Assembly (NCBI GenBank): GCA_002071335.1
Contig: MWEZ01000002.1
Span: 1-57,050, forward strand
Length of the DNA: 57,050 bases
DNA from: Verrucomicrobia bacterium ADurb.Bin018
GTDB taxonomy: Bacteria > Verrucomicrobiota > Kiritimatiellia > CAIQIC01 > Lenti-01
Direction: 5' to 3'
The position numbers and the translations under genes were made by a program. The notes below the pieces were generated by a model. It was not told the origin of the DNA. It did not search any database and saw nothing but the letters and a program-made list of their open reading frames with translations. Shown here piece after piece: positions 1,952 to 30,004 of the stretch (the first letter of the stretch is position 1; every line of letters starts with the position of its first letter).

Positions 1952-1979
1952 TTGACAGATTGCGCGCATAGGCATAATT
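1952..1979 (+). promoter_or_regulatory. candidate sigma70-type promoter (TTGACA, 15-16 nt spacer, CATAAT/ATAATT) facing the IS and rhomboid gene
   Basis: TTGACA at 1952-1957 and cATAAT at 1973-1978, read directly. The spacer is short (15 nt) unless ATAATT is used (16 nt). Confidence 0.3.
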
Positions 1980-2043
1980 GCTCAAAACTGATTGGCGATC
2001 GCAATACCAGCCCATTTGTCCCGCATCATCCTTGCCGCGCACG

Positions 2044-2057
2044 CTCAACGCAAGCGT
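2044..2057. repeat. 14-bp direct repeat CTCAACGCAAGCGT, left copy, abutting the IS end
   Basis: The identical 14-mer recurs at 3330-3343, immediately outside the other IS end. Confidence 0.85.
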
Positions 2058-3329: not shown

Positions 3330-3343
3330 CTCAACGCAAGCGT
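3330..3343. repeat. 14-bp direct repeat CTCAACGCAAGCGT, right copy
   Basis: Identical to 2044-2057 and directly follows the right IS terminus. Confidence 0.85.
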
Positions 3344-3378
3344 TTTGAATATGGTGGCGCAATTGGCTGGCGGGCGGT

Positions 3379-5955: not shown

Positions 5956-5986
5956 CCCCCCCATGCGGCAACGCGCGGCCCATCCC

Positions 5987-6174
5987 TTTTCCATGGCGTG
6001 GAAAAAATATTTCCACACTGTGGAAAAATCGGTCCAAAGTTGTTCCATTGTGTGGAAAAATCGCCAAAACTTTTTCCATTGCGTGGAAAAATCGCCAAAA
6101 CTTTTTCCATTGCGTGGAAAAATATCACCCCATTTTTCCACACTGTGGAAAAAAGATTTCCACACTGTGGAAAA
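5987..6174. repeat. array 1 of palindromic repeats (7 units, core TTCCA-N5-TGGAA; best units TTTTCCACACTGTGGAAAA)
   Basis: Cores at 5989-6003, 6011-6025, 6043-6057, 6074-6088, 6105-6119, 6136-6150 and 6158-6172. Centre spacings are 22, 32, 31, 31, 31 and 22 bp. The array includes a tandem copy of a ~31-bp unit (6057-6121). Confidence 0.9.
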
Positions 6175-11697: not shown

Positions 11698-11827
11698 TGG
11701 AAGGTCGGCGACCATTCCAGCCCGACAATCCGACCCGGCTGCTTTTGTAGGGCGGGAATGGTTGAGGGACGATACCTTCCCGCCGGAAAAGGCTGGAAGG
11801 TCTGCGACCGTTCCAGCCCTACAATCC
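11698..11827. repeat. two ~34-bp hairpin-containing direct repeats plus a central hairpin in the convergent gap after panC
   Basis: TGGAAGGTCgGCGACCaTTCCAGCCCgACAATCC (11698-11731) and TGGAAGGTCtGCGACCgTTCCAGCCCtACAATCC (11794-11827), offset by 96 bp. Each holds the stem TGGAAGGTC/GACCnTTCCA. The central hairpin is GGCGGGAA...TTCCCGCC (11751-11784). Confidence 0.7.
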
Positions 11828-11843
11828 AATCTGGATGTGATGA

Positions 11844-13322
11844 TTACAAAATTTCGACTCGGACGTCCTCGGCGGACTTTTGGTCAATCGCCTTGGTTTC
11901 GATGGGCTGGTAGGTGGGCAGGAAGCGGTAATACACTTGCAGCGTCAAGGCGGCCAAGGTGGTGGCATAGACTTGGCTGTTGATGCTTTCGCCGCGGAAC
12001 TCACGCGTGACGCCATCGCCGGTGAGCGCATGGCCGGGGGAGGTCCAACTGCCGTCCGAGCTTTGATTGTGGATCAGCGTGGGCGCAAATTTGTTGTTCC
12101 ATGCCGTCCAGTGGGCGCCACCTTGGTGAAACTTGGCCTGGCTGACGTAGTACCATGAATAGATGGGCGCCTGCTCCGGTTTTTTCCAGTTGCAGTCGGC
12201 ATCCTTCAGGAAGCTCAAGCCGGATTTGGTCGCGCTGTGGTTGCCGTAGCCCAGTAGTTGCAGGCACAACACCGACACCGCCGTCATGTTGGGCTGGCGG
12301 CCCGAGTTGGCGGCGGAATACGGGAAGCTGCCATCCTGCTGTTGCCGTTGTACAAGAAATTCCGACGCTTTATCCATGGAGGCCTTGAGCCCTTGGTTGT
12401 CCGCACCGGCGATATACGCCGCTTTGAGCGCCTGCATGCAGAAACCGGAAAGCGAGACGTCCCAGCGGGCCGCATCGCCGGTCTTGCCGAACGAATACAT
12501 CACCCAGCCACCATGGTTGCGCTGGCCATCCAGGATAACCTGCACCGCTTTTTCCATGACTTGGCGCAGCGAGGGGATGCGGGTCATGCCATAAGCTTCG
12601 CTGAGGGCATAGGTGCAAATGGCGTGGCCATAGGCGCCACCGGAGCCTTCGGTTTTCAGGAATTCGCCCTGCTCATTCTGCCGGGCCACCAAGAAGCGGA
12701 TGGCGCGTTCGACGGTGGCCCCATATTTTTCGGAGGCCGTGGTTTCACCATGGGCCAGATAGGTCAGGATGGCCAAGCCGGTATAGGCCTCCTTGTCGTT
12801 GTTGCCCCAGGAGCCGTCCGCATTCTGATGGATGCGCAGCCACTCAAGGGCGCGCAGCACGGCGATTTCGGCACGTTCCCCCCATGGGCCAGCGTAGTTG
12901 CCGAGGGCCCCGATGCGGCTCTCGCCGATGCGGTTGCCCATCGCCCCCGGGGGGAGCCCCCGCAAAATGATGGGGCTGATGGCATTGTCAATGTACAACT
13001 CCGTAAGGGTGTCGGCCGGCGCCTGGGCAAAATCACTAATCTCCGGCGGCGGGGGCATGTCTATGCTCACTTCCGGCGGGGTAACGGTCGGCACCGTCTC
13101 CGGTGGCAATTCTGTCCGCGGATCCTGCGGGACCAAGGTATCGAGTTTCAGCGGGTCAATTTCGACCACCTGCACTTCGATTTCGCTGGTTTTCTCCTTG
13201 GTGGTCTGGCTGGCAAACAGGAAGAGCAGGACAATGGCCAGCACGTGCAGTGTAATGGAGCCAGTGGGGCCGGCGACCCATTCCATGAAGTTCTTATATA
13301 GCGCGTTGTGCGATACGTTCAT
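11844..13322 (-). CDS. TonB-like N-terminal anchor (SxxxH) + Pro-rich linker fused to QW-repeat (squalene-cyclase/prenyltransferase-like) domain, paralog 1
   Basis: 492 aa. One TM segment, GSITLHVLAIVLLFLF, carries S-x-x-x-H. A Pro/Glu-rich segment follows (PPETVPTVTPPEVSIDMPPPPE). Then come repeats fitting the QW motif: RALEWLRIHQNADGSW, RAIRFLVARQNEQGEF, KAVQVILDGQRNHGGW, KASEFLVQRQQQDGSF, and a looser LIHNQSSDGSW. Confidence 0.8.
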   Translation of the reverse strand: MNVSHNALYKNFMEWVAGPTGSITLHVLAIVLLFLFASQTTKEKTSEIEVQVVEIDPLKLDTLVPQDPRTELPPETVPTVTPPEVSIDMPPPPEISDFAQAPADTLTELYIDNAISPIILRGLPPGAMGNRIGESRIGALGNYAGPWGERAEIAVLRALEWLRIHQNADGSWGNNDKEAYTGLAILTYLAHGETTASEKYGATVERAIRFLVARQNEQGEFLKTEGSGGAYGHAICTYALSEAYGMTRIPSLRQVMEKAVQVILDGQRNHGGWVMYSFGKTGDAARWDVSLSGFCMQALKAAYIAGADNQGLKASMDKASEFLVQRQQQDGSFPYSAANSGRQPNMTAVSVLCLQLLGYGNHSATKSGLSFLKDADCNWKKPEQAPIYSWYYVSQAKFHQGGAHWTAWNNKFAPTLIHNQSSDGSWTSPGHALTGDGVTREFRGESINSQVYATTLAALTLQVYYRFLPTYQPIETKAIDQKSAEDVRVEIL

Positions 13323-13443
13323 GACTTCCTCCAGCTTTATAGTCGCAGGTCATCCTTAGACGGCATCTGGCGAACAGGCACCGGTTTCTATCCTACTTAT
13401 ACATCTTTTTTGCGCGTGAGTCACGCAATTATTTCAAGCCGGT

Positions 13444-14592
13444 TCAGGGCGCGGCAGCGCCCGCCAGAAGCCGCTGATAAAGATCTAACAGCTTCTGGGC
13501 GCTGGCGGGCCATGTATGGCGGGCCAACACCAGATCGCGCCCGGCCGCGCCAAGGCGCTGGCGCAAGGCCGGATTGTCCGCCAGCTTGGTCAGGCCTGCC
13601 GCCAGTGCCGTCGCATCGCCCACCGGCACCACGATGCCCGCGCCATCGGCCACCAGCCGCGGCACCCAGGCGCAATCGGTGGTCAACACCGGCAGGCCGG
13701 CGGACATTCCCTCGATGGCCGCAAAGCAGAAGGATTCGTAATCGCTGGCGATGACCTTGATATCGGCGGCGGCATACACCGCCGGCAGTTCGGCAAATGG
13801 CACCTCGCCCAGGAACAACACCTGCTTGCTGATGCCCAGCGTCGCGGCCTGCTGCTCCGTTCGCTCGCGCAACGGCCCGCTGCCCACCAGCACCAGCCGC
13901 GCTGCCGGATGGGTTTTGGCAAATTCGGCAAACGCGTCCAGCAACAGCGCATGGTTTTTGAACGCTTGAAAACGCGCTACATACAACGCCACGAATTCAT
14001 CGCGGCAAATGCCGTGTTGGGCGCGAAAAGCGGAGGGCTGTGGGCGAAACAAATCGGCATCCACCGCGTTGGGGATATTGGTCGGCGCCGGGAGCGGAGA
14101 CGCGGAGTCCGCGCCGCCGCGGGCCCGAAGTTTTTCGATGGTGGTGCCGCTGGCAATGAGCGCATCGGCCAACGGCGCGCCGCTGCGCGGGTCATAAAAG
14201 TTGGGCGCGGTGAGGCGCATCACCAGCGGGGTGGCCACCCCCCGTTTTTTCAGCCAATAGACCAGATTGGGCAGCTCGCAAATTTGAATGATGTCCCACT
14301 CGGCAGCGCGACGCGCAATCCAGCGTGCGGCACGCCATTCAAACCATTCAAACTCCAGTTGGCGGATACGCCAACCGCCTTTGACCTTGTCCCATGGGAA
14401 TCTCTTGAGCCAAGGGGTGTGCAGCACCTTCGCGCCGGGCAGCGGCAGCAGCGGCGGGCCGCAGAGTGGCGCGCCACTCAACAACGTAATCTCCACGCCC
14501 AGACGGGCCAGATGCCGCGAAATTTCGAGATCAAACGTCTCCCCCCCGCCCCGCTCCAGACAGGCCATCCGATTGACAAACAAAACTTTCAT
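13444..14592 (-). CDS. glycosyltransferase, GT4 (group 1) family
   Basis: 382 aa with an MKVLFVN...GGGE N-terminus and the C-terminal SDYESFCFAAIEGMSAGLPVLTTD (E-X7-E region) typical of GT-B group-1 enzymes. Confidence 0.85.
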   Translation of the reverse strand: MKVLFVNRMACLERGGGETFDLEISRHLARLGVEITLLSGAPLCGPPLLPLPGAKVLHTPWLKRFPWDKVKGGWRIRQLEFEWFEWRAARWIARRAAEWDIIQICELPNLVYWLKKRGVATPLVMRLTAPNFYDPRSGAPLADALIASGTTIEKLRARGGADSASPLPAPTNIPNAVDADLFRPQPSAFRAQHGICRDEFVALYVARFQAFKNHALLLDAFAEFAKTHPAARLVLVGSGPLRERTEQQAATLGISKQVLFLGEVPFAELPAVYAAADIKVIASDYESFCFAAIEGMSAGLPVLTTDCAWVPRLVADGAGIVVPVGDATALAAGLTKLADNPALRQRLGAAGRDLVLARHTWPASAQKLLDLYQRLLAGAAAP

Positions 14593-14748
14593 GTCCGGCC
14601 GGCCATGTCACCCAGACAAGAGGGTGGCCCCGAAACAATCGTATGGCACGCGCACATGCTGCCTGCCTGCTGGATCGGCATTACCATGCCGCGCAATTTG
14701 CCCGAATCGCCGGTTGAAGGCGACAGAAATCCAGTCCCACCGCGAGGA

Positions 14749-16230
14749 TTAGAGGATTTCGATTTGGACGTCCTCGGAGGACTTTTGGTCAATGGTCTTG
14801 GTTTCGATGGGCTGGTAGGTGGGCAGGAAGCGGTAATACACCTGCAGCGTCAGGGCGGCCAACGTGGTGGCATAAACCTGGCTGTTGATGCCTTCGCCGC
14901 GGAACTCGCGCGTGACGCCATCGCCGGTGAGCGCGTGGCCGGGGGAGGTCCAACTACCATCGGGGCTTTGGTTGCGGATCAGCGTGGGCGCGAACTTGTT
15001 GTTCCACGATGACCAGTGGGCGCCACCCTGGTGGAACTTGGCTTGGCTGACGTAGTACCACGAGTAGATGGGCGCCTGCTCCGGTTTGTTCCAGTTGCAG
15101 TCGGCATCCTTCAGGAAACTCAGGCCTGCTTTGGTGGCGTTGTGATTGCCGTAGCCCAGCAGTTGCAGGCACAGCACCGACACGGCCGTAATGTTGGGTT
15201 GGCGGCCCGGGTTGGCAGCCGAATAAGGGAAGCCGCCATCCTGCCGTTGCCGCTTGATCAGAAAGTCAGCGGCCTTATCCATCGAATCTTTGAGCCCCGG
15301 ATTGTCGGCGCCGGCGATATACGCCGCTTTGAGCGCCTGCATACAGAAACCGGAAAGCGAGACGTCCCAGCGGGCCACATCGCCGGATTTGCCAAAGGAG
15401 TACATCACCCAGCCGCCATGGTTGCGCTGGCCATCAATGATGACCTGTACCGCTTTTTCCATGACTTGGCGCAGCGAAGGAATACGCGTCATGCCGTAGG
15501 CTTCGCTGAGCGCATAGGTGCAAATGGCGTGACCATAGACGCCGCCGGAGCCTTCGGTTTTCAGGAATTCGCCCTGTTCATTCTGGCGGGCCACCAAATA
15601 GCGGATGGCCCGTTCGACGGTGGGGCCGTATTTTTCGGAGGCCGTGGTTTCGCCATGGGCCAGATAGGTCAAGATGGCCAAGCCGGCATACGCCTCCTTG
15701 TCATTCGTGCCCCAGGAGCCGTCCGGATTCTGATTGATGCGCAGCCACTCGAGGGCGCGCAGCACGGCGGCTTCGGCATATTGCCCCCACTGGCCGCCAT
15801 AGTTGCCGATGGCCGCATTGCGACCGGCGCCGGAACGGTTGGACATCTGCCCGGGGGCGAGGCCCTTCATGATGATGGGGCTGATGGCATCGGAGGCAAT
15901 ATCCAATTCTGTGACCGTGTCGGCCACCGGCGCCGCGGCAAAATCCTGAATGTCCGGCGGCGGAGTCATGTCCATGTTCACGTCCGGCGGCGTGACGGTG
16001 TCCACCATGTCCGGCAGTTCTTCGGGTGGACGGTCTTCGAGCAAGTCGTCCAGTTCCTGCTGGTCAATTTCGACCATCTGCACTTCGATTTCGCTGGTTT
16101 TCTCCTTGGTGGCCTGGCTGGCAAACAGGAAGAGCAGAACAATGGCCACCACGTGCAGCGTGATGGAGCCGGTGGGACCGGCCGCCCATTCCATGAAGTT
16201 CTTATATAGCGCTCTGTGCGATACGTTCAT
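14749..16230 (-). CDS. TonB-like anchor + Pro-rich linker fused to QW-repeat domain, paralog 2 (immediately downstream of exbD)
   Basis: 493 aa, colinear and mostly identical to 11844..13322, with the same GSITLHV anchor and QW-type repeats. Starts 34 nt after the exbD stop. Confidence 0.8.
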   Translation of the reverse strand: MNVSHRALYKNFMEWAAGPTGSITLHVVAIVLLFLFASQATKEKTSEIEVQMVEIDQQELDDLLEDRPPEELPDMVDTVTPPDVNMDMTPPPDIQDFAAAPVADTVTELDIASDAISPIIMKGLAPGQMSNRSGAGRNAAIGNYGGQWGQYAEAAVLRALEWLRINQNPDGSWGTNDKEAYAGLAILTYLAHGETTASEKYGPTVERAIRYLVARQNEQGEFLKTEGSGGVYGHAICTYALSEAYGMTRIPSLRQVMEKAVQVIIDGQRNHGGWVMYSFGKSGDVARWDVSLSGFCMQALKAAYIAGADNPGLKDSMDKAADFLIKRQRQDGGFPYSAANPGRQPNITAVSVLCLQLLGYGNHNATKAGLSFLKDADCNWNKPEQAPIYSWYYVSQAKFHQGGAHWSSWNNKFAPTLIRNQSPDGSWTSPGHALTGDGVTREFRGEGINSQVYATTLAALTLQVYYRFLPTYQPIETKTIDQKSSEDVQIEIL

Positions 16231-16264
16231 GACTTTCTCCAGCTATATCGTCGCAGGTTCTCGT

Positions 16265-16678
16265 TCAGTTGGATGCGCTGACCACCGACAGGCTTCGCAA
16301 ATTGTTTTTGGCGCACAGGTCCAGCACCTTCACCAGCATGCCGTGCTTGGACACCGCAGACACCGTGATCATGATGGTTTGGCCGGTATCAATGGAGGCC
16401 ACCTTGCCCAACGCCGCGTCCAGCTTGTCCAGCGTGACGGGGATGTCGTTGACGGTGTAGCCGTCCTGATACACGCCCACGCGTACAAGGTTGGGCGGCT
16501 TCTGATCTTCCTTGGCGGTTTTGTCCGGCGCGGGCCGGAAGACGTCCAAGTTGGTCATCACGTCAATCGGCTTGGTGGTGACGATGAAGTAGATCAGGAG
16601 CTGGAACACCACGTCAATCATGGGGGTCATTGACAGGGCGGGCTCCGTCACATCCGGGCGTTTGCGTTTTCTGGCCAT
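16265..16678 (-). CDS. exbD: ExbD/TolR family biopolymer transport protein (second copy)
   Basis: MARKRKRPDVTEPALSMTPMIDVVFQLLIYFIV is the typical ExbD N-terminus. The start was moved to ATG 16678 (SD GGAAGGAAG upstream), because the track start 16762 overlaps the upstream exbD. Confidence 0.85.
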   Translation of the reverse strand: MARKRKRPDVTEPALSMTPMIDVVFQLLIYFIVTTKPIDVMTNLDVFRPAPDKTAKEDQKPPNLVRVGVYQDGYTVNDIPVTLDKLDAALGKVASIDTGQTIMITVSAVSKHGMLVKVLDLCAKNNLRSLSVVSASN

Positions 16679-16697
16679 GGGGTGCTTCCTTCCTGTC

Positions 16698-17111
16698 CTA
16701 ACCCGCCTTTTCCTTGAGCGCGGCGAAGCGGAGCTTCCACAGCCCGGCCTTGCCGCAGACATCCATCACGCGCTTGATGGCGTCGTGCTGGGTCTCGCCA
16801 TCGCCGCGGATCACCACCGGCGTGCTTTGCCCGGTAGTGTTGCGCGCCTTGACCAACACGTTCAGCAGTTGTGCCTCGCTCAAGTTGGTCTTCATGATGG
16901 AAATCTTGCCGTTCTTGTCCACGTCCACCACCACGGTGCGCGGGTCCTTGACCTCCTCGACGGGGCCGTGGGGGGCCATGGCCATGCGGACGGCGGTGTC
17001 CATGGCCTTGGCCTGCAAGTCCGCGGTGGTAACGAAGAAAATGATGAGCTGGAACACCACGTCAATCATCGGCGTCATGTTCAGCTCGGCATCCGGATAT
17101 TGCTTTTTCAT
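16698..17111 (-). CDS. exbD: ExbD/TolR family biopolymer transport protein (first copy)
   Basis: 137 aa with the NMTPMIDVVFQLIIFF motif. Confidence 0.9.
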   Translation of the reverse strand: MKKQYPDAELNMTPMIDVVFQLIIFFVTTADLQAKAMDTAVRMAMAPHGPVEEVKDPRTVVVDVDKNGKISIMKTNLSEAQLLNVLVKARNTTGQSTPVVIRGDGETQHDAIKRVMDVCGKAGLWKLRFAALKEKAG

Positions 17112-17138
17112 GCTTGTCTCCCCGGGCGGGGTGGCAGC

Positions 17139-17939
17139 TTATTCTTCCACCACTTCCACGTTGCGCAGCGCCTTGATCAGGTCCATGGTCAAGCCTTCCA
17201 TGTTCAGGATGATCCGGGACAAGCGGTTCTTGAAGTAGGTGTAGAACGACACGGCCGGGATCGCCACCACCAGACCGGCGGCGGTGGTCCACAGCGCTTG
17301 GGCGATATTGAGCGCCAGCATGGCCTGCTGCGCGGCGCCCGCCTGCGTGTTGGCCAAGTTGGCGAAGGCCATGATCATGCCTTGCACCGTGCCGAGCAGC
17401 CCAAGCATCGGGGCAATATTGCCGTTCATGTTCAGGTAGGACACGCGCTGCATCATCTTTTCGCTCTCGAGGTCGGCGGCCACGCCCACCTGCTCCTGAA
17501 TAACTTCAAAGCCTTCCTTCACGTTGCGGAAGCCCGCCAGCAAAATGGCGGAAAGCGGTCCTTGATCCTGTTCGCAGCGCTGCATGGCCTTGATGACATC
17601 GCCCTGCTCCATGGCTTCGCGAACATCGTTCACCAACGCTTCGGGAATGATGCGCTTGGGACTGACGGTGATGAAGAAGTCAATGACCAGCCATGCCGCG
17701 GCAATGGAAGTGGCCAACAGGCCCAACCAAAGCACCACGCCCAGCCAGCCGGAGCCAACAATCACCTGCCACAGGCCGGAAGACGGCGCAGCGGCTTCGC
17801 CACCACCGGAGCCTTCCATCACCAATTCGCCGGCGGGTGCGGCGGCTTCTTCCTGCGCCAAGGTAGCCAGCGGCACCAGCACCAAAGCGGCCAAAACCAG
17901 AATCCCCAATGTCAACTGCAGTTTCTTGGACATGTTCAT
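17139..17939 (-). CDS. exbB: MotA/TolQ/ExbB proton-channel family protein
   Basis: 266 aa with a signal-like N-terminus, three TM segments and the conserved C-terminal GNIAPMLGLLGTVQGM...ALWTTAAGL region. Confidence 0.9.
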   Translation of the reverse strand: MNMSKKLQLTLGILVLAALVLVPLATLAQEEAAAPAGELVMEGSGGGEAAAPSSGLWQVIVGSGWLGVVLWLGLLATSIAAAWLVIDFFITVSPKRIIPEALVNDVREAMEQGDVIKAMQRCEQDQGPLSAILLAGFRNVKEGFEVIQEQVGVAADLESEKMMQRVSYLNMNGNIAPMLGLLGTVQGMIMAFANLANTQAGAAQQAMLALNIAQALWTTAAGLVVAIPAVSFYTYFKNRLSRIILNMEGLTMDLIKALRNVEVVEE

Positions 17940-17963
17940 TCTCCTTCAGTTCTTTTTACATTG

Positions 17964-18767
17964 TTACATTTTGCCCCGAGCCTGCGCGGCATAGGGCGAA
18001 GAGCCGTACTCGTTGACCACTTTCTTATACATATCCTTTGCGCGCGGGTCACGCAATTGTTCCAAGGCGGCGGCGGCTTTGTATGTGGCCTCGCCCATGA
18101 TCATCGGATCGCGCACGTCGGCAAACAGAATGGCCGTGCGCAGATAGTCCAGCGCAGCCAGCTCGACGTTGTTTTGATCCAACTGGATATCGCCGCGCAT
18201 GGTCTGGGCACGGGCCGCATCAGTCCGGCTGCCGGACGCCGCCACGGCATCCAACTGGCGCAGCAGCGCCGGATATTGCTTGGCCTTGAGCATGGCCGTC
18301 CGCATGCCCCACGCCGAGTCCGCGTTTTGTTTCTCGGCGGGCGACAACTGGAACAACTGCTCATAGGCCTTCACCGCACCCTCGGCATCACCCTTGGCCA
18401 GCAGGGCCTGCCCGAGCAGCTTGGCGGCTTCCACATCCCAGCCCAAGTGCCGGTATTTGGCAATCACGCCTTCCAGCAGCGATTTGGCCGCGTCATATTT
18501 CTGGGCCTTGATGGCTGCCGCGGCTTGGTCAATTTCCGCCGGCTTGTCGGCCACCGCGCGCTGGTAAGAGCCCTTGGGGAACGTCCGGCTGCCCATGTCG
18601 GTCATCAGGGTAATATCGCCATTGGGCTGGGCGCGGATGGCGGTGCCGGTAATTTGCTTGCCATCATTAAGCACCACGTAGGGCGCGGCCCAGACCGTGC
18701 CAGCCAGCATGGCCAGCGCGACGCAGATTCCAAGGATTCTCATAGTTTTCATGCTCTGGTCTCCCAT
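17964..18767 (-). CDS. TPR-like repeat protein with signal peptide
   Basis: 267 aa with a signal-like MKTMRILGICVALAMLAGTVWA and Ala/Leu-rich helical repeats. Starts 2 nt after the upstream TPR gene's stop. Confidence 0.7.
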   Translation of the reverse strand: MGDQSMKTMRILGICVALAMLAGTVWAAPYVVLNDGKQITGTAIRAQPNGDITLMTDMGSRTFPKGSYQRAVADKPAEIDQAAAAIKAQKYDAAKSLLEGVIAKYRHLGWDVEAAKLLGQALLAKGDAEGAVKAYEQLFQLSPAEKQNADSAWGMRTAMLKAKQYPALLRQLDAVAASGSRTDAARAQTMRGDIQLDQNNVELAALDYLRTAILFADVRDPMIMGEATYKAAAALEQLRDPRAKDMYKKVVNEYGSSPYAAQARGKM

Positions 18768-18769
18768 GT

Positions 18770-21601
18770 TTACATTTCGGTTTCGGCGGCAGGCGCGGTC
18801 GGTTCGGCGGGCGCGGCGGGTTCAACCGCCGCCGGTGCGGCCACTTCCGCATTTACCTTGAAGGAAGCCGTCGTCCGTTTTTGCCGCACTTCGTTGATCT
18901 TGGGGCTGGTCGGATACAGTTGCAAATAGCGGTCGCAGCTTTCGAGGACATCCGCGCTGCGGTCGAGTTCGTTCGCCACATCAATGGCCGCGAGGATGGC
19001 GGTGGCCACCTGCTGGCGCTCGCGCTCCGTCTTCATGCTCTGGCTGCCGAAGTATTCCATGCGCTTGTAGGTGGCCAGCGCGCCGACCAGGTCCTTCTCC
19101 TGTTCGAGGATCTGGGCGTAGAGGAGGCTGGCATCGTTGACCACTTCCGGTTCGCGCGCGTACTTGAAGATGTCGTTGAGCGCGGTCTTGGCAGCGGGCA
19201 GGCTGCCCAGTTTGAGGTTCGCGCGCGCGAGGGTGAATTTGGCCTGATAGAACAGCGCCGAATTGGGCCAGCGAGTCATCAGGTCGTTGAGCGCGGCCAC
19301 GGAGTCCGCATAGTCGCCCAGCTCATACTTGGCGGCCCCCATCCCATAAAGGGCGCGCTCCAGCACGGCGCGCTCTTCGGTTTTGCCAACCACCTGGCCA
19401 AATGCGCCGGCGGCCTCGGCCCACTGCTTGTGCTCCAGCATGGCCTGGCCCACGCGGGCAAATTCTTCCACTTTGTAGCTGCCGGGGCTGGCCAGCATGG
19501 CGGTCAGGGCGTCCTTGGCCTGCGCATATTGAGCCAGCTCCAGTGCGCCGCTAATGCGCGCATACTGCGCGTTCTTGCCTTCATCGGTGTTGGGATATTC
19601 CGCGGCCAGCCGCGCATACGTATCGTTGGCGCCGGGGTCCTTCAGCGCCATTTGCAACGACCCCTTCAAGTTGAGCGCCTTGGCCGCCAGATCGGACTTG
19701 GGATAAAAACCGAGGAATTCATCCAGCTTTTGGATGGCCGCCTTGCGAGTGGCATCGTTCGGCAGGCGGCTGAGACTATAGGCAAAGTAAAACCGCGCCT
19801 GCTCCAGCAAGGTGGCATTGCGCTGGATGTCCGCCGCCGAGTTGCCATAAGGATTGCCCGCCGGCGAAATAGCGGCAATCAGCGCGTTGAACTGCCGCGC
19901 GGCCTCGGCCAACTGGTCCGTGCGCCGGTAGCAATCGCCCAGCGCGAACATGGCCTGCGCCCGCGTGGGGCTCGGCTGCGACGACTCCAGATACAGCTTC
20001 ATGCCGTCAATCGCCCCCGCGTAATCTTGATCCGCGTAGGCCTTCCACGCGCGCTTGCTCAGCGCCTTCGGGTAGTTCTGGTCGTTGGGATAGTCGGTGA
20101 TGATCTTCGCCAGATAGTTGTTGGCGGTGTCCTGATCGCCCGCCTGCTCGGCCTTGCTGGCCAGATAAAACAGGATTTGTCCCGCCCGCGAGTCCTGCGG
20201 ACAATAGGCCAGGTAGCGGTCGAACAAATACTTCGACATCTCGGCGTTGCCGGCGCGGTCATACAACTGCGCGGCGGACACCAGCCCCTTGGCGGGGATG
20301 TCGCTCTTGGCCGCGAACCGCTCGCCCAGATAGTTCGCCGCCACCTTCGCATACAGCGAATCATCCAGATTCTGGTAGCACTGCAACAGGTTGGCCACCG
20401 CCGCTATGGAGAGCTCTCCCGACTCCGGGAACCGCGACAACACTTGCAGATATTCCGCCGCCGCATCCGCATATTGCTTCGAGCGGAACATGTTGTCCGC
20501 CATCATGAACTCGGTGCCCGCCGCCTTGTTGGCCAACGTGGTGGGCAGGTCAATCTTAACCTGCTTGCCGTACTTGGTTTCGAGGATTTCCTTGATCTCC
20601 TTGGCCGCCATGCCCGCGCTGGGACCCCACTCGCTGTCGCCGTATTTGATGAAGACGTTGTAATACTCGCCCAGCGCGCCGCTATACGCCTTGATGGCCT
20701 CCTCTTCCTTGCCTGCCTGCCCGGCCAACTTGTCGGCCTCCTCGCGGAAGAGCCGGCCCAGCAGCGACCGCGTGCCGGCCATCGGGCTTTCCTTGAGCGG
20801 GATCCCCATTTCCTTGAGGTTCTCGTCAATGGGCTTGATGACATCCATGTACTCCATCAGCACCTTCTTCGCGCCCGCCGGATTGCCCTTGGCCAGCTCA
20901 ATGTTCGCCAGCACCACGATGGAATCCACAAACTGCAAGTCCATGCCGCCCCACTGGATCGTCTCGCAAAGCTTGCGGGCCTCATCCAGCAACTTGTTTT
21001 TGTCGTCACCGCTCTTGTTTTCAGCTGCGCGCACCAGCGCTTGCGCGCGGTGCACCTGCATCGAGCGCTGCATTTCCTTGCCATCCGCCACTTCCTCGAC
21101 GCGCTTGAAGCTCTTGGCCGCCTCCTCGAACTGGCTGATCATCTGCAACATCTGCGCGTACTGATACGCCGCGTCGCGGTAAAACCGCGCCACATCCGCA
21201 TCCGTCGGCTTCTGGTTTTCGTACAACTTGAAAAAGGCATCATAGAGCGCCCGCGCCTTGTCGTATTCGCCGATCCCGAAATAGTTGCGCGCCAACGCCA
21301 GGCTGATCGCCTGCGCCTTGGGGTTGCTCATCCCCATCTCGTTGATGATCGCCTCCGCGTCCGCGTATTGCCGGCGCTGAATCAGGATTTCCGCTTGGAT
21401 GATCCGGCTGCGGTCTTTTTGCGAAGGGTCCTTCGCCAGCACCGCATCCACCACTTTTTGCGCAAAGTCCGCGAAGGGAGGCTGATAGTTCACCAGTCCG
21501 GAAGCAAACTTGAAGTCCTCGTCCACGTCCGCCCGGGCCCCCCAGCCCGCCAGCATTACAGTTGCCATCACCACCGTGCCGACCCACTTGCTCTTTTTCA
21601 T
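18770..21601 (-). CDS. large tetratricopeptide-repeat protein with signal peptide
   Basis: About 943 aa of TPR-type repeats (recurrent A..Y/F..A...P motifs). The preferred start is ATG 21601 (MKKSKWVGTVVMATVMLAGWGARA, with AGGAG 12 nt upstream). The track start 21613 is an alternative. Confidence 0.8.
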   Translation of the reverse strand: MKKSKWVGTVVMATVMLAGWGARADVDEDFKFASGLVNYQPPFADFAQKVVDAVLAKDPSQKDRSRIIQAEILIQRRQYADAEAIINEMGMSNPKAQAISLALARNYFGIGEYDKARALYDAFFKLYENQKPTDADVARFYRDAAYQYAQMLQMISQFEEAAKSFKRVEEVADGKEMQRSMQVHRAQALVRAAENKSGDDKNKLLDEARKLCETIQWGGMDLQFVDSIVVLANIELAKGNPAGAKKVLMEYMDVIKPIDENLKEMGIPLKESPMAGTRSLLGRLFREEADKLAGQAGKEEEAIKAYSGALGEYYNVFIKYGDSEWGPSAGMAAKEIKEILETKYGKQVKIDLPTTLANKAAGTEFMMADNMFRSKQYADAAAEYLQVLSRFPESGELSIAAVANLLQCYQNLDDSLYAKVAANYLGERFAAKSDIPAKGLVSAAQLYDRAGNAEMSKYLFDRYLAYCPQDSRAGQILFYLASKAEQAGDQDTANNYLAKIITDYPNDQNYPKALSKRAWKAYADQDYAGAIDGMKLYLESSQPSPTRAQAMFALGDCYRRTDQLAEAARQFNALIAAISPAGNPYGNSAADIQRNATLLEQARFYFAYSLSRLPNDATRKAAIQKLDEFLGFYPKSDLAAKALNLKGSLQMALKDPGANDTYARLAAEYPNTDEGKNAQYARISGALELAQYAQAKDALTAMLASPGSYKVEEFARVGQAMLEHKQWAEAAGAFGQVVGKTEERAVLERALYGMGAAKYELGDYADSVAALNDLMTRWPNSALFYQAKFTLARANLKLGSLPAAKTALNDIFKYAREPEVVNDASLLYAQILEQEKDLVGALATYKRMEYFGSQSMKTERERQQVATAILAAIDVANELDRSADVLESCDRYLQLYPTSPKINEVRQKRTTASFKVNAEVAAPAAVEPAAPAEPTAPAAETEM

Positions 21602-21728
21602 GGTCGCATCCATCTCCTACAAAATGGCCTGTCTGCCAGTCGAACGCTGTTGCAGATTCATGACTTGTTTATACCTGTTCAACCGGACTATCGTCAACCC
21701 GGAAGACATCTTTTTTGCGGAACCCACC

Positions 21729-22820: not shown

Positions 22821-22829
22821 AGCCCCTCA

Positions 22830-22934
22830 TTTTTCCACACTGTGGAAAACATATTTCCATGCTGTGGAATAAATTACGCTTTAGGTACCCAATTTTTCCA
22901 CACTGTGGAAAACTTATTTCCACGCCGTGGAAAA
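22830..22934. repeat. array 2 of the TTCCA-N5-TGGAA palindrome family (4 units)
   Basis: Cores at 22833-22847, 22855-22869, 22896-22910 and 22918-22932. Centre spacings are 22, 41 and 22 bp. The array lies in the convergent gap between the AKR gene and waaA. Confidence 0.9.
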
Positions 22935-23069: not shown

Positions 23070-24380
23070 TTAGTCGGGAAGACGTTCGGCCAAGACTCGC
23101 TCGGCCATCCGGCGGGTGGCGCCGGCTCTGTTGGCCACGAGGTCGGCAGCGGCGCGGCCAAGCCGGTTGCGCGCGGCGGGATCGTCCAACAATTCCAGCA
23201 AAATTCGGTGCAAATCGGCAGTGTCACGGGCTTGGCGCCACGCGCCGGCAGCGGTGAAGTCGTCGGCAATCACCGCAAAGTTTTCCATGTGGGGCCCCAC
23301 CACCACGGGCTTGCCGTCACGGGCGGGTTCAATTGGATTTTGTCCGCCGGTTTGGGTGAGGCTTTTTCCAACAAAAATCAAATCGGCGGCGGCATAAAAT
23401 CCGCGGAGTTCGCCGGTGGTGTCCACCAGCAGGACGTCGGGGCGTTGTTCGGGAACGGGGGCGTCGTCGGGGAACTGACTGCGCTGGACGTAGTGCAGGC
23501 CGCGGCGGCGGATTTCGTCGAGGACTTCCTCCCGACGCTCGGCGTGGCGGGGCACCAGAACCAGCAACAATCCCGGATGTGTGGCCTTGGCGGTTTGATA
23601 GAAATCGAGCAGGACCGCTTCTTCGCCGGCCCACGTGGAGCCGCCAACCAGCACGGGGTGGCCGGGCTTCACGCCCAGCTTGGCGAGGAGCGCGCTGGCC
23701 CGGGCTTCCGCCGTAGGCGCGGTGGGGCCAATGTCATATTTGGCGCTGCCGGCAATTTCCACCCGCTCGGGCGGCGCACCCAGAGCCAGCAGCCGGTCGC
23801 GGTCCACTTCGCTCTGCACGCAAAACCAGTTCAGGCGTGGCAGCAGGCGGCGGGTAATGAACCGGAGCTTGCGGTAGCCCTTGAACGAATGGGCGGAAAT
23901 CCGGCCGTTAACCAGCAAGACGGGGATGCCGCGCTTGCGGGAGTAGCGAATCAGATTGGGCCACATTTCGTTTTCGATGAGCACCACGGCGCTGGGCCGG
24001 ATGCGCCGCAGGGCGCGGGTGACCACGCCGGGCACATCCATCGGGAAATAGAGCGTGACATCGGGCGCGTGAACTTTTTTCAGCGCGAGGGCATGGCCGG
24101 TGGAGGTGTTGGTGGTCAGCACAAAGCGCAAGTTCGGGGCGCGGCGGCGCAACTCATCCATAAATGAAAAAGCCACGGCCAACTCGCCGACGCTGACAGC
24201 TTGAATCCAGATGGGTCGGCCGGGTGCGGCGAGCAAGTCGGCGGTGGCGGCGTTATACCACGCAAAACGCTGGGTAAAGTCGCGCGCGTAGCCGCCGCGG
24301 CGCAGCATCCGCCAGATGAAATGCGGCAGCAAAAAGGCGAACGCAATCGGAAACAACAAGTTATATAACCACCAAATCAC
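23070..24380 (-). CDS. waaA: 3-deoxy-D-manno-octulosonic acid (Kdo) transferase
   Basis: 436 aa with an N-terminal membrane anchor and the PIWIQAVSVGE motif typical of KdtA/WaaA. Confidence 0.9.
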   Translation of the reverse strand: MIWWLYNLLFPIAFAFLLPHFIWRMLRRGGYARDFTQRFAWYNAATADLLAAPGRPIWIQAVSVGELAVAFSFMDELRRRAPNLRFVLTTNTSTGHALALKKVHAPDVTLYFPMDVPGVVTRALRRIRPSAVVLIENEMWPNLIRYSRKRGIPVLLVNGRISAHSFKGYRKLRFITRRLLPRLNWFCVQSEVDRDRLLALGAPPERVEIAGSAKYDIGPTAPTAEARASALLAKLGVKPGHPVLVGGSTWAGEEAVLLDFYQTAKATHPGLLLVLVPRHAERREEVLDEIRRRGLHYVQRSQFPDDAPVPEQRPDVLLVDTTGELRGFYAAADLIFVGKSLTQTGGQNPIEPARDGKPVVVGPHMENFAVIADDFTAAGAWRQARDTADLHRILLELLDDPAARNRLGRAAADLVANRAGATRRMAERVLAERLPD

Positions 24381-25588
24381 GGCACAAATCCTTTGTTCAT
24401 CTGCAAGATGGGCAGCAGTACGGCCAGCGCAATCAACGTTACAAACAGGCCCACCACCAACGTCAAACCGATTTCCAGCAGCAGCATTCCGCGGGTGGCC
24501 AGGCGGTCCCAGCTTTGTTGGAAACGCTGCGCGGCGTTATCCAGCAGGCCAACCAAATTACCACCGGCTTCGCCGGCTTGCACCCAGGCCGCCAGCGAGG
24601 GATGCAGTGGCTGAATGCTGCGGATGACAGCCACCAGCGGCTTCCCCTGCCCCATGGCTTCGGTTTCGCGCGCCGCGCAGGAAGCGAGCCACGCGCTGCC
24701 GGAGGCCCGCCCGGCCATCGGCACGCTTTCGATCAGGCTCACGCCGCGCTCCAACAGCAACCCGAACACCCTCACAAAACGCAGGCTGGCCAGATTCCGC
24801 CAGCCGCCGCCGATGATCGGCAACGAGAACAAGCGGCGGTCCAGGCGGATGCGCCACACTTCATCAGTGCGCCAGCGCCGCCGCAGCACAAAAAATGCCG
24901 CCACCGCGCCGGCCACCAGCAGGAGCAACAGCAGGCCGAGCGTCCGCCCGCCCGCCAGCAGGATGCGCGTTAACGCCGGCAACTGCAGGTTTGCCTCGGT
25001 GAAGAGGCTTTGCACCTTGGGCAGCAGCAGCGTGAGCACGAGGCCACCGATGATCAACGCCAGCGAAACCACAACCAGCGGATATAACAGCGCGGTCATC
25101 AGCTTTTCGCGCAATTTTTCCTGTTCTTCCAAAAATGCGGCCAACCGCGCCAGCGCTTCGGGCATGCCGCCGGTACGCTCGCCCACTTCGATCACGGCCT
25201 GCTCGAAGAGTGTCACCTGCGGCGAGACGGCCGGCATGGCGGCGCTCAGCGGGCGGCCTTCGCGCACCATGTCGCGCACGGCGGCCAGCAGGGTGCGGGC
25301 CTGATCCAGCTCGGGCGCTTGCAGAATGACATCGAGGGCGGGCACCAACGCCACGCCGGAGCCGAGCAGTGCGGCCAGCTCGCGATAAAACATGGTGCGC
25401 ACGTCTGAGGAAAAAATGGTGGCGCGTGCCCCGCGCCGGGCGGCGGTGCCGCGCGCGGCCTGTACGCTTTCCGGTAAGATACCGCGCACGGTGAGGCGCT
25501 TGCGGGCATCCTTGAGGTCCGCGGCTTCGATCAATCCGGACTGCGCGCGGCCGGCGGCATCAAAGCCCTTATATTCAAAGGTCATCAC
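24377..25588 (-). CDS. gspF: type II secretion system protein F (GspF/PilC family)
   Basis: 403 aa with two T2SSF-type repeats and three TM segments. The stop overlaps the waaA start (ATGA). Confidence 0.88.
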   Translation of the reverse strand: MMTFEYKGFDAAGRAQSGLIEAADLKDARKRLTVRGILPESVQAARGTAARRGARATIFSSDVRTMFYRELAALLGSGVALVPALDVILQAPELDQARTLLAAVRDMVREGRPLSAAMPAVSPQVTLFEQAVIEVGERTGGMPEALARLAAFLEEQEKLREKLMTALLYPLVVVSLALIIGGLVLTLLLPKVQSLFTEANLQLPALTRILLAGGRTLGLLLLLLVAGAVAAFFVLRRRWRTDEVWRIRLDRRLFSLPIIGGGWRNLASLRFVRVFGLLLERGVSLIESVPMAGRASGSAWLASCAARETEAMGQGKPLVAVIRSIQPLHPSLAAWVQAGEAGGNLVGLLDNAAQRFQQSWDRLATRGMLLLEIGLTLVVGLFVTLIALAVLLPILQMNKGFVP

Positions 25589-25609
25589 GGCGGTGTGCGC
25601 TCCCGGCCT

Positions 25610-27157
25610 TTAGTCCCGCCGCGTGCCGGCGGCGCGCAGCACTTCGGCCACGGAAGTCACACCGGCCAAAATCTTGTCCAAGCCGTCATCGAGCATATCG
25701 CGGAAACCCGCCGCGACGGCCTGCCGGCGCAATTCCGCCGGCGGCACATTTTTGCGGATGGCTTCGGCCAGCGGCGGCGTGACGGCCAGCAATTCATAAA
25801 TGCCGGTGCGCCCCTTGTAGCCGCCGAGGCATTCCGCGCAGCCGGCGCCCGACGGCTCCCACGCGGGTCGCCCGGCCAGCGCCGGTTGGCCAAATACAGC
25901 GGCATCAGTGGCGGTGAGTGTGGTTTCGCGCCGGCAGTTGGGGCACAAGCGTCGTACGAGCCGCTGGGCCAGCATCGCGCGCGAGGCGGCGGCCAGCAGA
26001 TACGGCGGGATGCCCATGTCCACCATGCGCGTCATGGCGCCCACCGCGTCGTTGGTGTGCAGCGTGGTGAAGACCAGATGGCCGGTCAACGAGGCGCGCA
26101 CCACGATCTCCGCGGTTTCCAAATCGCGGGTTTCGCCGACGAGCACCACATCCGGGTCCTGCCGCAGCAGGTGCCGCAGGCCGCGCGCGAACGTCAGCCC
26201 GATTTTGGGATGCACCTGCACTTGGCCGATGTTGGGCAACTGGTATTCGATGGGGTCTTCGATGGTCAGCACGTTGAGATGCGCGGTGTCCAGCTCGCGC
26301 AACGTGGCATAGAGCGTGGTAGTTTTGCCACTGCCGGTTGGCCCGGTGACGAGCACAATGCCGTGCGGTTCGCGCAGAATATCGCGGAACTGGGCCAGCA
26401 TGGCGGGCGCGATGCCCAGCTCATTCAACGAATAGCGCGTGGATTCGCGGTGCAGCAGGCGCAGCACGATGCGCTCGCCTTCGGCGACGGGCACGCTGGA
26501 CACGCGCACATCAATCTCGCGCGCCCCCACCCGCACCCGCGCCACGCCGTCCTGCGGCAGACGCTTTTCGGCCAAGTCCAATTTGGCCATCACCTTGAGG
26601 CGGGCGGTCAGCGCGCCTTCCAAATGGCGTGGCGGGCGCGGCTGTTCGTAGAGCAGGCCGTCAATCCGGTAGCGCACGGTCAGAGTGTTGGCGAACGGCT
26701 CAATATGAATATCCGACGCGCCCCGTTTGACGGCCTCCAGCAACACGAGGTTCACGTAGTTGGCCACAGGAGCATCCGCGTGGCCGGCCAGCAGGTCGTC
26801 CGCCTCGCGCGCGGCAGGCGTGCCCGCGCCGCCGGCCACCGCGGCTTGGCCCGCTTGCTCGGCGGCTTCGTCCGTTTGGCCCGCGCGCCGGAAATAGCAC
26901 CGATCAATCGCGCGCTGGATTTCGGCGGCCGGCGCGGTGACCCACACGGCCTCCACGCCCAGCAGCAGCGATAAATCTTCGTAGGCTTGCAGCGCAGCAT
27001 TTTCCGCGCCGGCAATGGCCACGGCCCCATTCCAGCGCAGCGGCACGAGGCCATGCCGCCGCACCCAATCCACGGGCACCGTTTCGATCAACGCCGGGTC
27101 GAGCCATTCGTCGGCAATGCGTTCCAGCGCGGGTCGGCCTGGCGCCGCGGCGCTCAT
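25610..27157 (-). CDS. gspE: type II secretion ATPase (GspE family)
   Basis: Walker A GPTGSGKTTT, Asp/His boxes and a tetracysteine motif (CPNC...CAEC). The start overlaps the gspD stop. Confidence 0.92.
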   Translation of the reverse strand: MSAAAPGRPALERIADEWLDPALIETVPVDWVRRHGLVPLRWNGAVAIAGAENAALQAYEDLSLLLGVEAVWVTAPAAEIQRAIDRCYFRRAGQTDEAAEQAGQAAVAGGAGTPAAREADDLLAGHADAPVANYVNLVLLEAVKRGASDIHIEPFANTLTVRYRIDGLLYEQPRPPRHLEGALTARLKVMAKLDLAEKRLPQDGVARVRVGAREIDVRVSSVPVAEGERIVLRLLHRESTRYSLNELGIAPAMLAQFRDILREPHGIVLVTGPTGSGKTTTLYATLRELDTAHLNVLTIEDPIEYQLPNIGQVQVHPKIGLTFARGLRHLLRQDPDVVLVGETRDLETAEIVVRASLTGHLVFTTLHTNDAVGAMTRMVDMGIPPYLLAAASRAMLAQRLVRRLCPNCRRETTLTATDAAVFGQPALAGRPAWEPSGAGCAECLGGYKGRTGIYELLAVTPPLAEAIRKNVPPAELRRQAVAAGFRDMLDDGLDKILAGVTSVAEVLRAAGTRRD

Positions 27158-29229: not shown

Positions 29230-30002
29230 CTGGATATGCCTCGCTCGCTCTTGCGGATGAAGTCCACAAAATGCTCGATGGGCGCCGATGTTGCCACCGT
29301 CGCCACAATTTTCTCCAACGCCGCCGCCACGGTCAGGTCGGAGCGATACACAATTTTATAGGCCTCTTTCAGCGCCTGCTGAACTTCTAGCGGGATGCCG
29401 TGGCGCTCCAACCCCACTTTGTTCGGGCCATAGACCTTCAGCGGGTCGCCATCGGCCATCATATAAGGCGGTACATCCTTCACCACCTTGGTGAACCCGC
29501 CCACGATGCTCATCCGCCCCACCCGCACGAACTGGTGCACCCCCGTCAGACCGCCGATGATGGCTTCATCCTCCACGATCACGTGCCCCGCCAACGTGGC
29601 GTTGTTGGCCATGATGACGCGGTCGCCCACGACGCAGTCGTGCGCCACATGGCAATAGGCCATGATCAGGCACTTGGCGCCCACGCGCGTTTCACCACCA
29701 TCAAAGGTGGCACAATTCAACGTGGCGCATTCGCGAATGACGGTTTGTTCGCCCACGATCAGGCGCGGCGCGCCGCCTTTGTACTTCAGGTCCTGCGTTT
29801 TGCCGCCCACGCTGGCAAACGGCCAAACCTCACAGCCTGCGCCCAACGTGGTATGCCCTTCCACACTCACGTGCGAACGCAACACAACGCGATCCCCCAA
29901 CCGCACGTTCTCGCCCACCATGCAGAACGGACCGACAACCGCATCCGCCCCCAACTCCGCGTTGGGGTGCACCACGGCCAGCGGATGGATGCTCACCCCC
30001 AT
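29226..30002 (-). CDS. lpxA: acyl-ACP--UDP-N-acetylglucosamine O-acyltransferase
   Basis: MGVSIHPLAVVHPNAELG starts the hexapeptide-repeat LpxA fold. The start was set at ATG 30002 (track ORF extends to 30302). The stop overlaps the gspD start (ATGA). Confidence 0.9.
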   Translation of the reverse strand: MGVSIHPLAVVHPNAELGADAVVGPFCMVGENVRLGDRVVLRSHVSVEGHTTLGAGCEVWPFASVGGKTQDLKYKGGAPRLIVGEQTVIRECATLNCATFDGGETRVGAKCLIMAYCHVAHDCVVGDRVIMANNATLAGHVIVEDEAIIGGLTGVHQFVRVGRMSIVGGFTKVVKDVPPYMMADGDPLKVYGPNKVGLERHGIPLEVQQALKEAYKIVYRSDLTVAAALEKIVATVATSAPIEHFVDFIRKSERGISR

Positions 30003-30004
30003 GC

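Follow-up and report, generated by a model that had tools for sequence, protein, structure and literature searches.

The stretch of DNA analysed here, referred to as the window, comprises 57,050 nucleotides from Verrucomicrobia bacterium ADurb.Bin018 (GTDB lineage Bacteria; Verrucomicrobiota; Kiritimatiellia; CAIQIC01; Lenti-01) and corresponds to positions 1-57,050 of the forward strand of contig MWEZ01000002.1 (assembly GCA_002071335.1). On its minus strand, an operon for a motor of the ExbB/ExbD family is followed by two genes encoding proteins of 493 and 492 amino acids (aa), which are probably motor-coupled periplasmic force transducers of a non-canonical TonB/TolA class, with an (alpha/alpha)6 toroid as the head. 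To our knowledge, the ExbB/ExbD and TolQ/TolR motors are the only known route of energy delivery to the periplasm and outer membrane of Gram-negative bacteria, and until 2025 one C-terminal fold was shared by every motor output protein known to us. The toroid-headed class looks like an undescribed variant of this known envelope machine, one that is widespread and consistently syntenic.

The genes occupy positions 11844-21613 in the order TPR947, TPR267, ExbB-like, ExbD1, ExbD2, toroid protein A, a family 4 glycosyltransferase (GT4) and toroid protein B. The first two encode tetratricopeptide repeat (TPR) proteins with signal-peptide-like N-termini. TPR947 (18770-21613; 947 aa) contains YbgF/CpoB-type TPR modules and matches Pfam TPR_6, TPR_14, TPR_19 and YfiO, and TPR267 (17964-18767; 267 aa), which begins 2 nucleotides (nt) past TPR947, matches TPR_16 and TPR_6 (sub-gathering). 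The putative proton-channel subunit is an ExbB/TolQ-like protein (17139-17939; 266 aa; Pfam MotA_ExbB, 101.6 bits) with an N-terminal signal-like extension. Two ExbD/TolR-like subunits follow, ExbD1 (16698-17111; 137 aa; Pfam ExbD, 87.3 bits) and ExbD2 (16265-16678; 137 aa; 71.3 bits), which are ~30% identical to each other and keep the aspartate of the transmembrane (TM) helix (MIDVVFQL in ExbD1). The longest open reading frame (ORF) for ExbD2 (16265-16762) runs into ExbD1; an ATG at 16678, behind the ribosome-binding site GGAAGGAAG, gives the 137-aa product. With this start the intergenic gaps are 2, 24, 27, 19 and 34 nt, the last separating ExbD2 from the gene for toroid protein A, and thus the 2-34 nt packing from TPR947 to the 493-aa gene, described in an earlier note on this sequence, is correct. 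Toroid protein A (14749-16230; 493 aa) consists of an anchor, a linker, the (alpha/alpha)6 toroid and an acidic tail, and toroid protein B (11844-13322; 492 aa) is 84% identical to it by BLASTP, with the same anchor, strand, toroid and tail.

An AlphaFold2 model of protein A, built from 61 aligned family members, reached a mean predicted local distance difference test (pLDDT) score of 79 and a predicted template-modelling score (pTM) of 0.71. It divides the protein into a helix (residues 5-17), a TM helix (19-39), a disordered segment (40-125), a 12-helix toroid (126-466) and a disordered tail (467-493). The TM helix (16114-16176; GPTGSITLHVVAIVLLFLFAS) is the only one predicted and includes GSITLHV; the model and a motif check therefore agree with the earlier assignment of the S-x-x-x-H arrangement (SxxxH) to a single TM helix. 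Within the pattern S22-x3-H26-x6-L33, the three named residues are in register with the first three positions of the Ser-His-Leu-Ser (SHLS) motif of TonB and TolA, and G18, P19, G21 and H26 show no variation among 26 relatives with identities as low as 50%.

Nine residues past the TM helix, the strand I48-E-V-Q-M-V-E54 (16069-16089) fits the pattern PhiZPhiZPhiPhiZ. This alternation of hydrophobic and hydrophilic residues defines the D-box of TonB, the strand captured by the ExbD dimer (PMC10907165), and the TolA counterpart has been named the 'motor box' (PMC12204202). Of 409 sampled family members with a recognisable TM helix, 240 have the D-box pattern no more than 35 residues past it, compared with 24 of 409 shuffled sequences, an enrichment of ~10-fold. 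The D-box-like strand is kept in all three types of anchor found in the family (see below); in protein A it has no flanking prolines, and many relatives carry 'xDP' after the strand.

The spacer that follows (residues 40-125) contains 10 Pro, 9 Glu and 13 Asp in 86 residues and forms a disordered linker of ~70 residues. It had been described as Pro/Glu-rich; it is proline-rich and acidic, but Asp outnumbers Glu. Beyond it, the toroid (residues 126-466; 14833-15855) is modelled as an (alpha/alpha)6 fold with pLDDT mostly above 90, and this fold assignment is confidently predicted. Each paralog contains three exact copies of the QW pattern of squalene-hopene cyclases, one copy with one mismatch and one with two, spaced by ~50 residues (at 158, 207, 259, 319 and 412 in protein A), a better fit than the single exact repeat first noticed. 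Of 2000 shuffled sequences none had an exact match, and matches allowing up to one mismatch came to 0.003 per sequence. The QW sequence originally quoted, RALEWLRIHQNADGSW, belongs to paralog B (157-172); paralog A has RALEWLRINQNPDGSW.

Profile hidden Markov model (HMM) searches gave a divided answer to the families proposed for the head. Pfam SQHop_cyclase_C matched both paralogs at 54.5 and 48.2 bits (gathering score 26.1) and cleared this threshold in 60 of the 61 family members, Prenyltrans fell short of its own (19.3 and 21.0 bits against 26.5), and TonB_C was not matched. No TonB_C or TolA domain was found by Pfam at E<=0.1 in the full proteins or in any of the 61 members, nor at E<=10 in the isolated N-terminal 146 and C-terminal 43 residues. 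The AlphaFold2 model, in which the toroid is followed by 27 disordered residues, agrees with the HMM searches that the TonB C-terminal domain is absent, as the earlier note had claimed, and neither approach detected a cryptic version of that fold. There was likewise no Pfam match to von Willebrand factor A (vWA) domains in the paralogs or the 61 members, the predicted fold being an (alpha/alpha)6 toroid. The catalytic signature DxDD (D-x-D-[DE]) occurs nowhere in either paralog, and DDxxD and CxEQ are missing from the toroid. TED_complement scored near its Pfam threshold; the thioester domain (TED) of alpha2-macroglobulin and complement is marked by the CxEQ thioester motif, which has no counterpart in the toroid proteins, and a thioester function was therefore rejected. 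A prenyltransferase function was also rejected on account of the sub-gathering Prenyltrans score.

Foldseek searches against the PDB returned (alpha/alpha)6 barrels of unrelated functions, with a TM-score of ~0.65 on the target and 10-18% identity. These included the transaldolase AprG, single-domain proteins similar to squalene-hopene cyclase (SHC), MstE, GH76, GH105, MmpH, epimerases and the C3 TED. Even among members that are only 33-40% identical, the toroid has many invariant Tyr, Trp, Gln, Asp, Arg and Lys positions, which points to a definite, conserved site for a ligand or partner.

The tail of protein A (residues 467-493; 14752-14832) comprises a conserved RFLPTYQPIE, an acidic stretch and the terminal strand DVQIEIL; it is 27 residues long, acidic and disordered in the AlphaFold2 model. 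Across the family, VYYRxLPTY is conserved at this end of the protein, and the acidic stretch beyond it leads to an amphipathic strand at the terminus (EDVQIEIL in the window protein). An alternating strand is present in the last 9 residues of 284 of the 409 sampled members and of 22 of 409 shuffled sequences.

In distant members the toroid is joined to other domains. It is fused to an N-terminal zf-HC2 anti-sigma domain in P0176 and to DUF2135 in P0149, and in P0233 (1729 aa) it is combined with PD40 TolB-type propeller repeats and a LanC-like toroid. The zf-HC2 fusion fits a toroid that would serve as a periplasmic sensing or binding module.

The family is large. A word-indexed search found 1,252 homologs, and an exhaustive search of cluster representatives at 50% identity gave 10,913 at E<=1e-3 and 1,054 at E<=1e-30, the best 150 being mostly full-length matches from anchor through tail. 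Named homologs come from Kiritimatiellia, Lentisphaerae/Victivallales, 'Verrucomicrobiota' and other metagenome-assembled genomes (MAGs) of the Planctomycetes-Verrucomicrobia-Chlamydiae (PVC) group; a cluster look-up for a cultured host returned MAGs only. Among species-representative genomes (one genome per species) there were at least 558 relatives. Synteny was judged in the best 78 of these, of which 64 loci had sufficient upstream sequence. In 55 of the 64, TPR947, TPR267, ExbB, ExbD1 and ExbD2 lie directly upstream of one to four tandem toroid genes, whose products are 38-94% identical to the window protein. In these 55 loci TPR947 is the first gene of the operon and the position of TPR267 is likewise kept. 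ExbD1 is 42-93% identical in related loci and is a paralog distinct from ExbD2, and the heterologous pair is present in all linked loci. The annotated loci L001-L003 have the same operon order, often with mutL next. A second ExbB-ExbD pair, in L081, has no transducer beside it. The association with exbB-exbD-exbD thus holds in relatives, and it extends to 6 of 6 loci examined from a divergent branch lacking the anchor histidine.

Three types of anchor were distinguished. Type 1, found in the window, reads GPxGSxxxH; type 2 (...EEYRRRQMxEHLTGPxxSxxxH) also keeps the His; and type 3 has a cytoplasmic segment of ~60 residues (...GLKxPxDSGEYKWA...) and then a TM helix without His. The His is kept in ~50 of 52 linked loci of the window clade, the exceptions being changes to Asn and Tyr in type-1 loci. 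Conservation of SxxxH, on which the earlier note had made its reading depend, therefore holds for the window clade and for type 2 but not for the whole family, since the divergent type-3 branch has no His; in the sequences sampled, SxxxH is not universal among orthologs. The 6 type-3 loci examined are nevertheless all within the same motor operon.

Cryo-electron microscopy (cryo-EM) has shown that S16 and H20 of TonB pack on S34 and W38 of ExbB TM1, and S18 and H22 of TolA on S28 and W32 of TolQ (PMC12215075). In every locus whose anchor bears the His, the ExbB TM1 residue at the S34/S28 position of the alignment is Ser, and in 6 of 6 type-3 loci it is Ala. The anchor His and the ExbB TM1 Ser, which form the two sides of the predicted contact, were thus lost together, and this co-variation falls at the position predicted from the cryo-EM structures.

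The cytoplasmic segment of type-3 members (for example L082, 10001-11572; L083, 10001-11662) is conserved over ~60 residues ahead of the TM helix (...LMELFDELSFREKWxRVFxGLKxPxDSGEYKWARLQ...) and has no Pfam match. In P0176 the anti-sigma zinc finger precedes this segment, a hint that a signal passes to the cytoplasm. A further feature kept in the divergent type-3 loci is found in residues 1-60 of the ExbB-like protein, where a signal-peptide-like segment and an Ala/Pro/Glu-rich extension precede TM1.

The residues expected of a working motor are intact. In the ExbB-like protein the TM1 Ser aligns with TolQ S28 and ExbB S34, and the conserved Thr, Thr and Pro are kept in LGTVQG, LWTTAAG and AIPAV; the TM Asp is present in both ExbD copies. 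Although Pfam places the motor in the ExbB/ExbD family, the exbB-exbD/tonB framing given to the operon in the earlier note is only partly apt, as NCBIfam scores bring the genes closer to Tol models. TolQ is the best NCBIfam match of the ExbB-like protein (91 bits, cut-off 221), the ExbB model giving 58 bits, also below its cut-off. TolR is the best match of the ExbD-type proteins (52 bits, cut-off 127), closer than the ExbD models. TPR947 matches tol_pal_ybgF at 100.3 bits (cut-off 90.1) over seven repeated modules, and TPR267 matches it at 43 bits, short of the cut-off. A CpoB/YbgF-type TPR protein, as in Tol-Pal, is therefore present in TPR947, yet its 947-aa architecture is unlike that of CpoB, and neither tolB nor pal was found in this operon or in the annotated related loci. 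Overall, to judge from these scores, the genes for the motor and the TPR proteins resemble Tol more than Ton.

The window contains no recognisable gene for a TonB-dependent receptor, as first reported. Its five ORFs longer than 600 aa include a secretin and a P-type ATPase, both scanned, and TPR947. The remaining two, of 1246 and 1395 aa, are read from context as rpoB and rpoC, beside ribosomal-protein genes and tuf. A Tol-like role in envelope maintenance is favoured over one in nutrient import.

Comparison with TonB and TolA shows a shared plan below an unrelated head. The toroid proteins likewise have one N-terminal TM helix with Ser-x3-His-x6-Leu, a D-box/motor-box strand just past it and a disordered, proline-rich periplasmic linker of ~70-100 residues; the gene stands directly behind exbB/tolQ and exbD/tolR, and some genomes have extra unlinked paralogs. 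In contrast to the ~90-residue TonB_C/TolA-III fold, however, the head is an (alpha/alpha)6 toroid of ~340 residues with an acidic tail, and there is no sequence-profile match to either family. The toroid system also differs in having two different ExbD genes and two co-encoded large TPR proteins, with no gene for a TonB-dependent receptor, TolB or Pal near the toroid genes. Motors of the TolQ/TolR type are reused elsewhere with dedicated TonB-like partners for purposes other than nutrient import, as in Myxococcus gliding, where GltG and GltJ work with AglRQS. These partners keep TonB-C-like domains, and the gliding system has many more components than the toroid operon.

The closest precedent of the toroid-headed proteins is a class of vWA-headed transducers in PVC bacteria (Williams-Jones et al., 2025, Mol Biol Evol; PMC12204202). 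These authors searched lineages without recognisable TolA or TonB, starting from the Kiritimatiellota species Tichowtungia aerotolerans, and described transducers with an SHLS TM helix, a motor box, a linker of ~100 residues and a C-terminal vWA domain. The genes lie downstream of TPR-tolQ-tolR-tolR, with two heterologous tolR-like genes and sometimes two tandem transducers (PMC12204202). The supplement also records, for Lentisphaerae bacterium RIFOXYA12_FULL_48_11, 'tolQ-tolR-??? - No TolA found' (PMC12204202). The toroid system shares the PVC setting, the operon logic, the SHLS-type His-bearing TM helix, the motor box and the linker, and in both classes the head is unrelated to TonB/TolA. 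It differs in the toroid head, in an acidic linker where that of the printed Tichowtungia transducer is basic, in having two TPR genes and in a conserved acidic C-terminal strand. A toroid, squalene-cyclase-like or prenyltransferase-like head is not mentioned in that paper, in its supplement or in a 2026 review, and full-text searches found no literature linking squalene-cyclase-like or prenyltransferase-repeat proteins to ExbD/TolR. No description of the toroid-headed class itself was found, and the earlier note likewise knew of no described function for the architecture, but a conceptual precedent does exist.

Motor coupling is supported by the D-box-like strand after the TM helix, the co-variation of the anchor with the ExbB TM1 Ser and the intact motor residues. 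This evidence favours the proposal that the 493-aa protein spans the periplasm and is driven by the proton-motive force; the physical, mechanical coupling, the direction of force and the target are what we infer as follows. The TM helix would dock on the outside of the ExbB/TolQ-like pentamer, with Ser22 and His26 against the TM1 Ser, as motif homology and the co-variation suggest. The periplasmic domains of an ExbD1/ExbD2 heterodimer would capture the strand I48-E54 in the manner of the TonB D-box, a step suggested by the motif and its conservation. Proton flux would then turn or pull this handle, and the acidic, proline-rich linker of ~70 residues would span the periplasm and pass on the tension. 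The toroid would sit at the far end, near the peptidoglycan or the outer membrane, most likely as a binding module rather than a terpene cyclase, and its target may be a conserved ligand (glycan or lipid-linked) or a protein partner. More speculatively, the acidic tail with its amphipathic strand might be a second docking element, which could bind both CpoB-like TPR proteins or extend the beta-sheet of a partner.

Several observations weigh against a transducer role. The anchor resembles TonB/TolA at motif level only, and HMMs of the TonB and TolA families gave no match to it. Conservation does not extend to the fourth SHLS position (protein A has A37 and then S38), although the last Leu-Ser of SHLS is poorly conserved in TonB too (PMC12215075). 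The Trp of E. coli ExbB TM1 (W38; W32 in TolQ) is loosely kept, as an aromatic residue at +4/+5. A large branch, with 156 of the 409 sequences sampled, has no His, and the Ser/His-Ser co-variation, probably the outcome of one evolutionary event, is therefore statistically weak. Foldseek yielded no specific structural relative of the toroid, only generic (alpha/alpha)6 barrels, and therefore no function can be transferred to it; an active site would account equally well for the invariant Tyr, Asp, Arg, Lys and Gln residues. Lastly, linkage to the motor is lacking in nine of the 64 loci and in one Lentisphaeria example. On the side of a transducer role, these nine copies retain the SxxxH helix, the strand past the TM and the C-terminal strand, as would be expected of additional TonB paralogs.

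An alternative, though an unlikely one, is that the toroid proteins are inner-membrane-anchored periplasmic (alpha/alpha)6 enzymes, which share a substrate or pathway with the motor but are not pulled by it, SxxxH and the strand being incidental. Candidates would be a glycan hydrolase, a lyase, an epimerase or an enzyme of lipid-linked sugars. The best Foldseek matches to AprG, GH76, GH105, MmpH and epimerases, weak Pfam matches to Pec_lyase and GH88, and the GT4 gene between the two paralogs are in keeping with such a role, and the invariant Y232, Y239, E243, D289, S291, Q298, K301, Y336, Y392 and Y393 suggest a pocket. However, no catalytic signature of the matched enzyme families was recognised, and the operon is kept with the motor and with no glycan pathway, GT4 recurring only in L013 among linked loci. 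Furthermore, the conservation of anchor and strand far exceeds the needs of a signal anchor, and the anchor co-varies with ExbB TM1. An enzymatic role is compatible with motor coupling, and thus this explanation competes with the transducer reading only in its claim that the protein is not coupled.

It is quite improbable that the toroid protein accompanies the motor as a static part, either a strut to the envelope or peptidoglycan that positions or anchors ExbB/ExbD or a scaffold for the TPR proteins, with output through another, unlinked protein. Such a strut would suit the constant co-encoding of the TPR proteins, for which the acidic C-terminal tail could serve as a ligand, the variation from one to four tandem toroid genes that these operons tolerate and the lack of a TonB-like beta-sheet head to grip a partner strand. 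Yet contact with peptidoglycan is normally supplied by the ExbD/TolR proteins themselves, whereas a D-box-like handle, a long flexible linker and an SxxxH anchor are traits of the moving partner in Ton and Tol, and no conserved operon examined contains another candidate transducer gene.

That the toroid proteins are true class II terpene cyclases or prenyltransferases, with an isoprenoid lipid as product or substrate, is scarcely credible: the (alpha/alpha)6 barrel, the three exact QW motifs (with QW repeats on outer helices, as in the cyclases), the SQHop_cyclase_C matches, the first place of squalene-hopene cyclases in a PDB profile search and the single-domain SHC-like proteins among the top Foldseek matches all point that way, but the PDB profile alignments are limited to the QW repeats, DxDD and DDxxD are missing, Prenyltrans is sub-gathering, NCBIfam cyclase models score 34.7-48.5 bits, far below their cut-offs (for protein A, TIGR01787 48.5 against 322.7 and TIGR01507 40.9 against 431.1), and in place of a two-domain cyclase there is one toroid of ~340 residues, predicted to be periplasmic, tethered by a long acidic linker to a TM helix and encoded in an operon for an envelope motor.

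If the transducer reading is right, a TM helix plus D-box would constitute a portable motor-docking cassette that evolution has joined to unrelated heads, and the toroid proteins would be candidate replacements in lineages reported to lack TolA and TonB. A bolder version can be put forward tentatively, as possible rather than likely. In it, the toroid is a third head type after the TonB/TolA fold and vWA and, for the Tol-like motor of Kiritimatiellia and of many Lentisphaerae, is the main or only output. In these lineages it would fill the 'missing TolA' slot or power receptor-independent envelope handling of a glycan or lipid-linked polymer, and the transducer's own strand (DDVxIEIL) would dock into the TPR proteins or a partner sheet, reversing the polarity of TonB and the Ton box. 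The family is syntenic across Kiritimatiellia, Lentisphaerae and related PVC lineages. Its natural variants with and without His, with their matching change in ExbB TM1, would allow essential features of the anchor to be told cleanly from dispensable ones. Databases call the family 'terpene cyclase/mutase family protein' or 'squalene cyclase', and no curated model names it. The former is probably a misnomer and, if the proteins are true transducers, thousands of entries are misnamed.

The two toroid genes of the window lie in duplicated DNA (11823-13357 and 14728-16265), which takes in a 35-nt leader and 21 nt beyond the stop codon. Where relatives have tandem genes, the second product shares only 47-59% identity with protein A, and the 84% identity seen here therefore suggests a recent duplication or gene conversion specific to the lineage of the window. 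The GT4 gene between the two (13444-14592, minus strand; 382 aa; Pfam Glycos_transf_1, 131.9 bits) is a lineage-specific insertion. It was rejected as a component of the system, since among the linked loci compared GT4 lies directly 3' of a toroid gene only in L013, the nearest relative. A scan for promoters and terminators over 11.5-22 kb gave no excess over shuffles.

Beyond the operon, Pfam confirmed two genes within positions 24377-30302, a secretin of type II secretion (27154-29229) and, at 29226-30302, an LpxA-like acyltransferase. Adjacent genes for 515 and 403 aa resemble GspE and GspF, and a 436-aa gene at 23070-24380 resembles KdtA, by sequence reading alone. This neighbourhood is not kept with the toroid operon in relatives, which have mutL and other neighbours instead, and a link to the type II secretion genes (24-29 kb) was therefore rejected.

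Mobile and repetitive elements are also present. An IS30-like transposase gene (HTH_38 and rve; 2088-3137) lies in the stretch 1-4000, where G+C is 0.49-0.56 compared with ~0.62 elsewhere. A tRNA-Thr gene is found at 46250-46325. A 300-nt direct repeat of 99% identity (46561-46860 and 48462-48761) brackets positions 47036-48411, where an AbiEii-family toxin gene (47036-47791) overlaps a gene for 207 aa. The segment looks like a toxin-antitoxin cassette inserted with a duplicated 5' region of the Exo_endo_phos gene (48709-50013). The palindromic repeat TTCCACnnnGTGGAA, with T/A-rich flanks, forms intergenic clusters at 5980-6174, 22824-22934 and 56715-56920, each of 2-5 copies spaced by 22-31 or ~60-80 nt, which could be elements like repetitive extragenic palindromes (REP) or arrays of operator sites. 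The third cluster is just upstream of a thiamine pyrophosphate (TPP) riboswitch (56556-56666, minus strand; 58.7 bits, gathering score 54.3), itself directly upstream of a Transp_cyt_pur-family permease (55218-56564, minus strand), which suggests a transporter of thiamine or a precursor.

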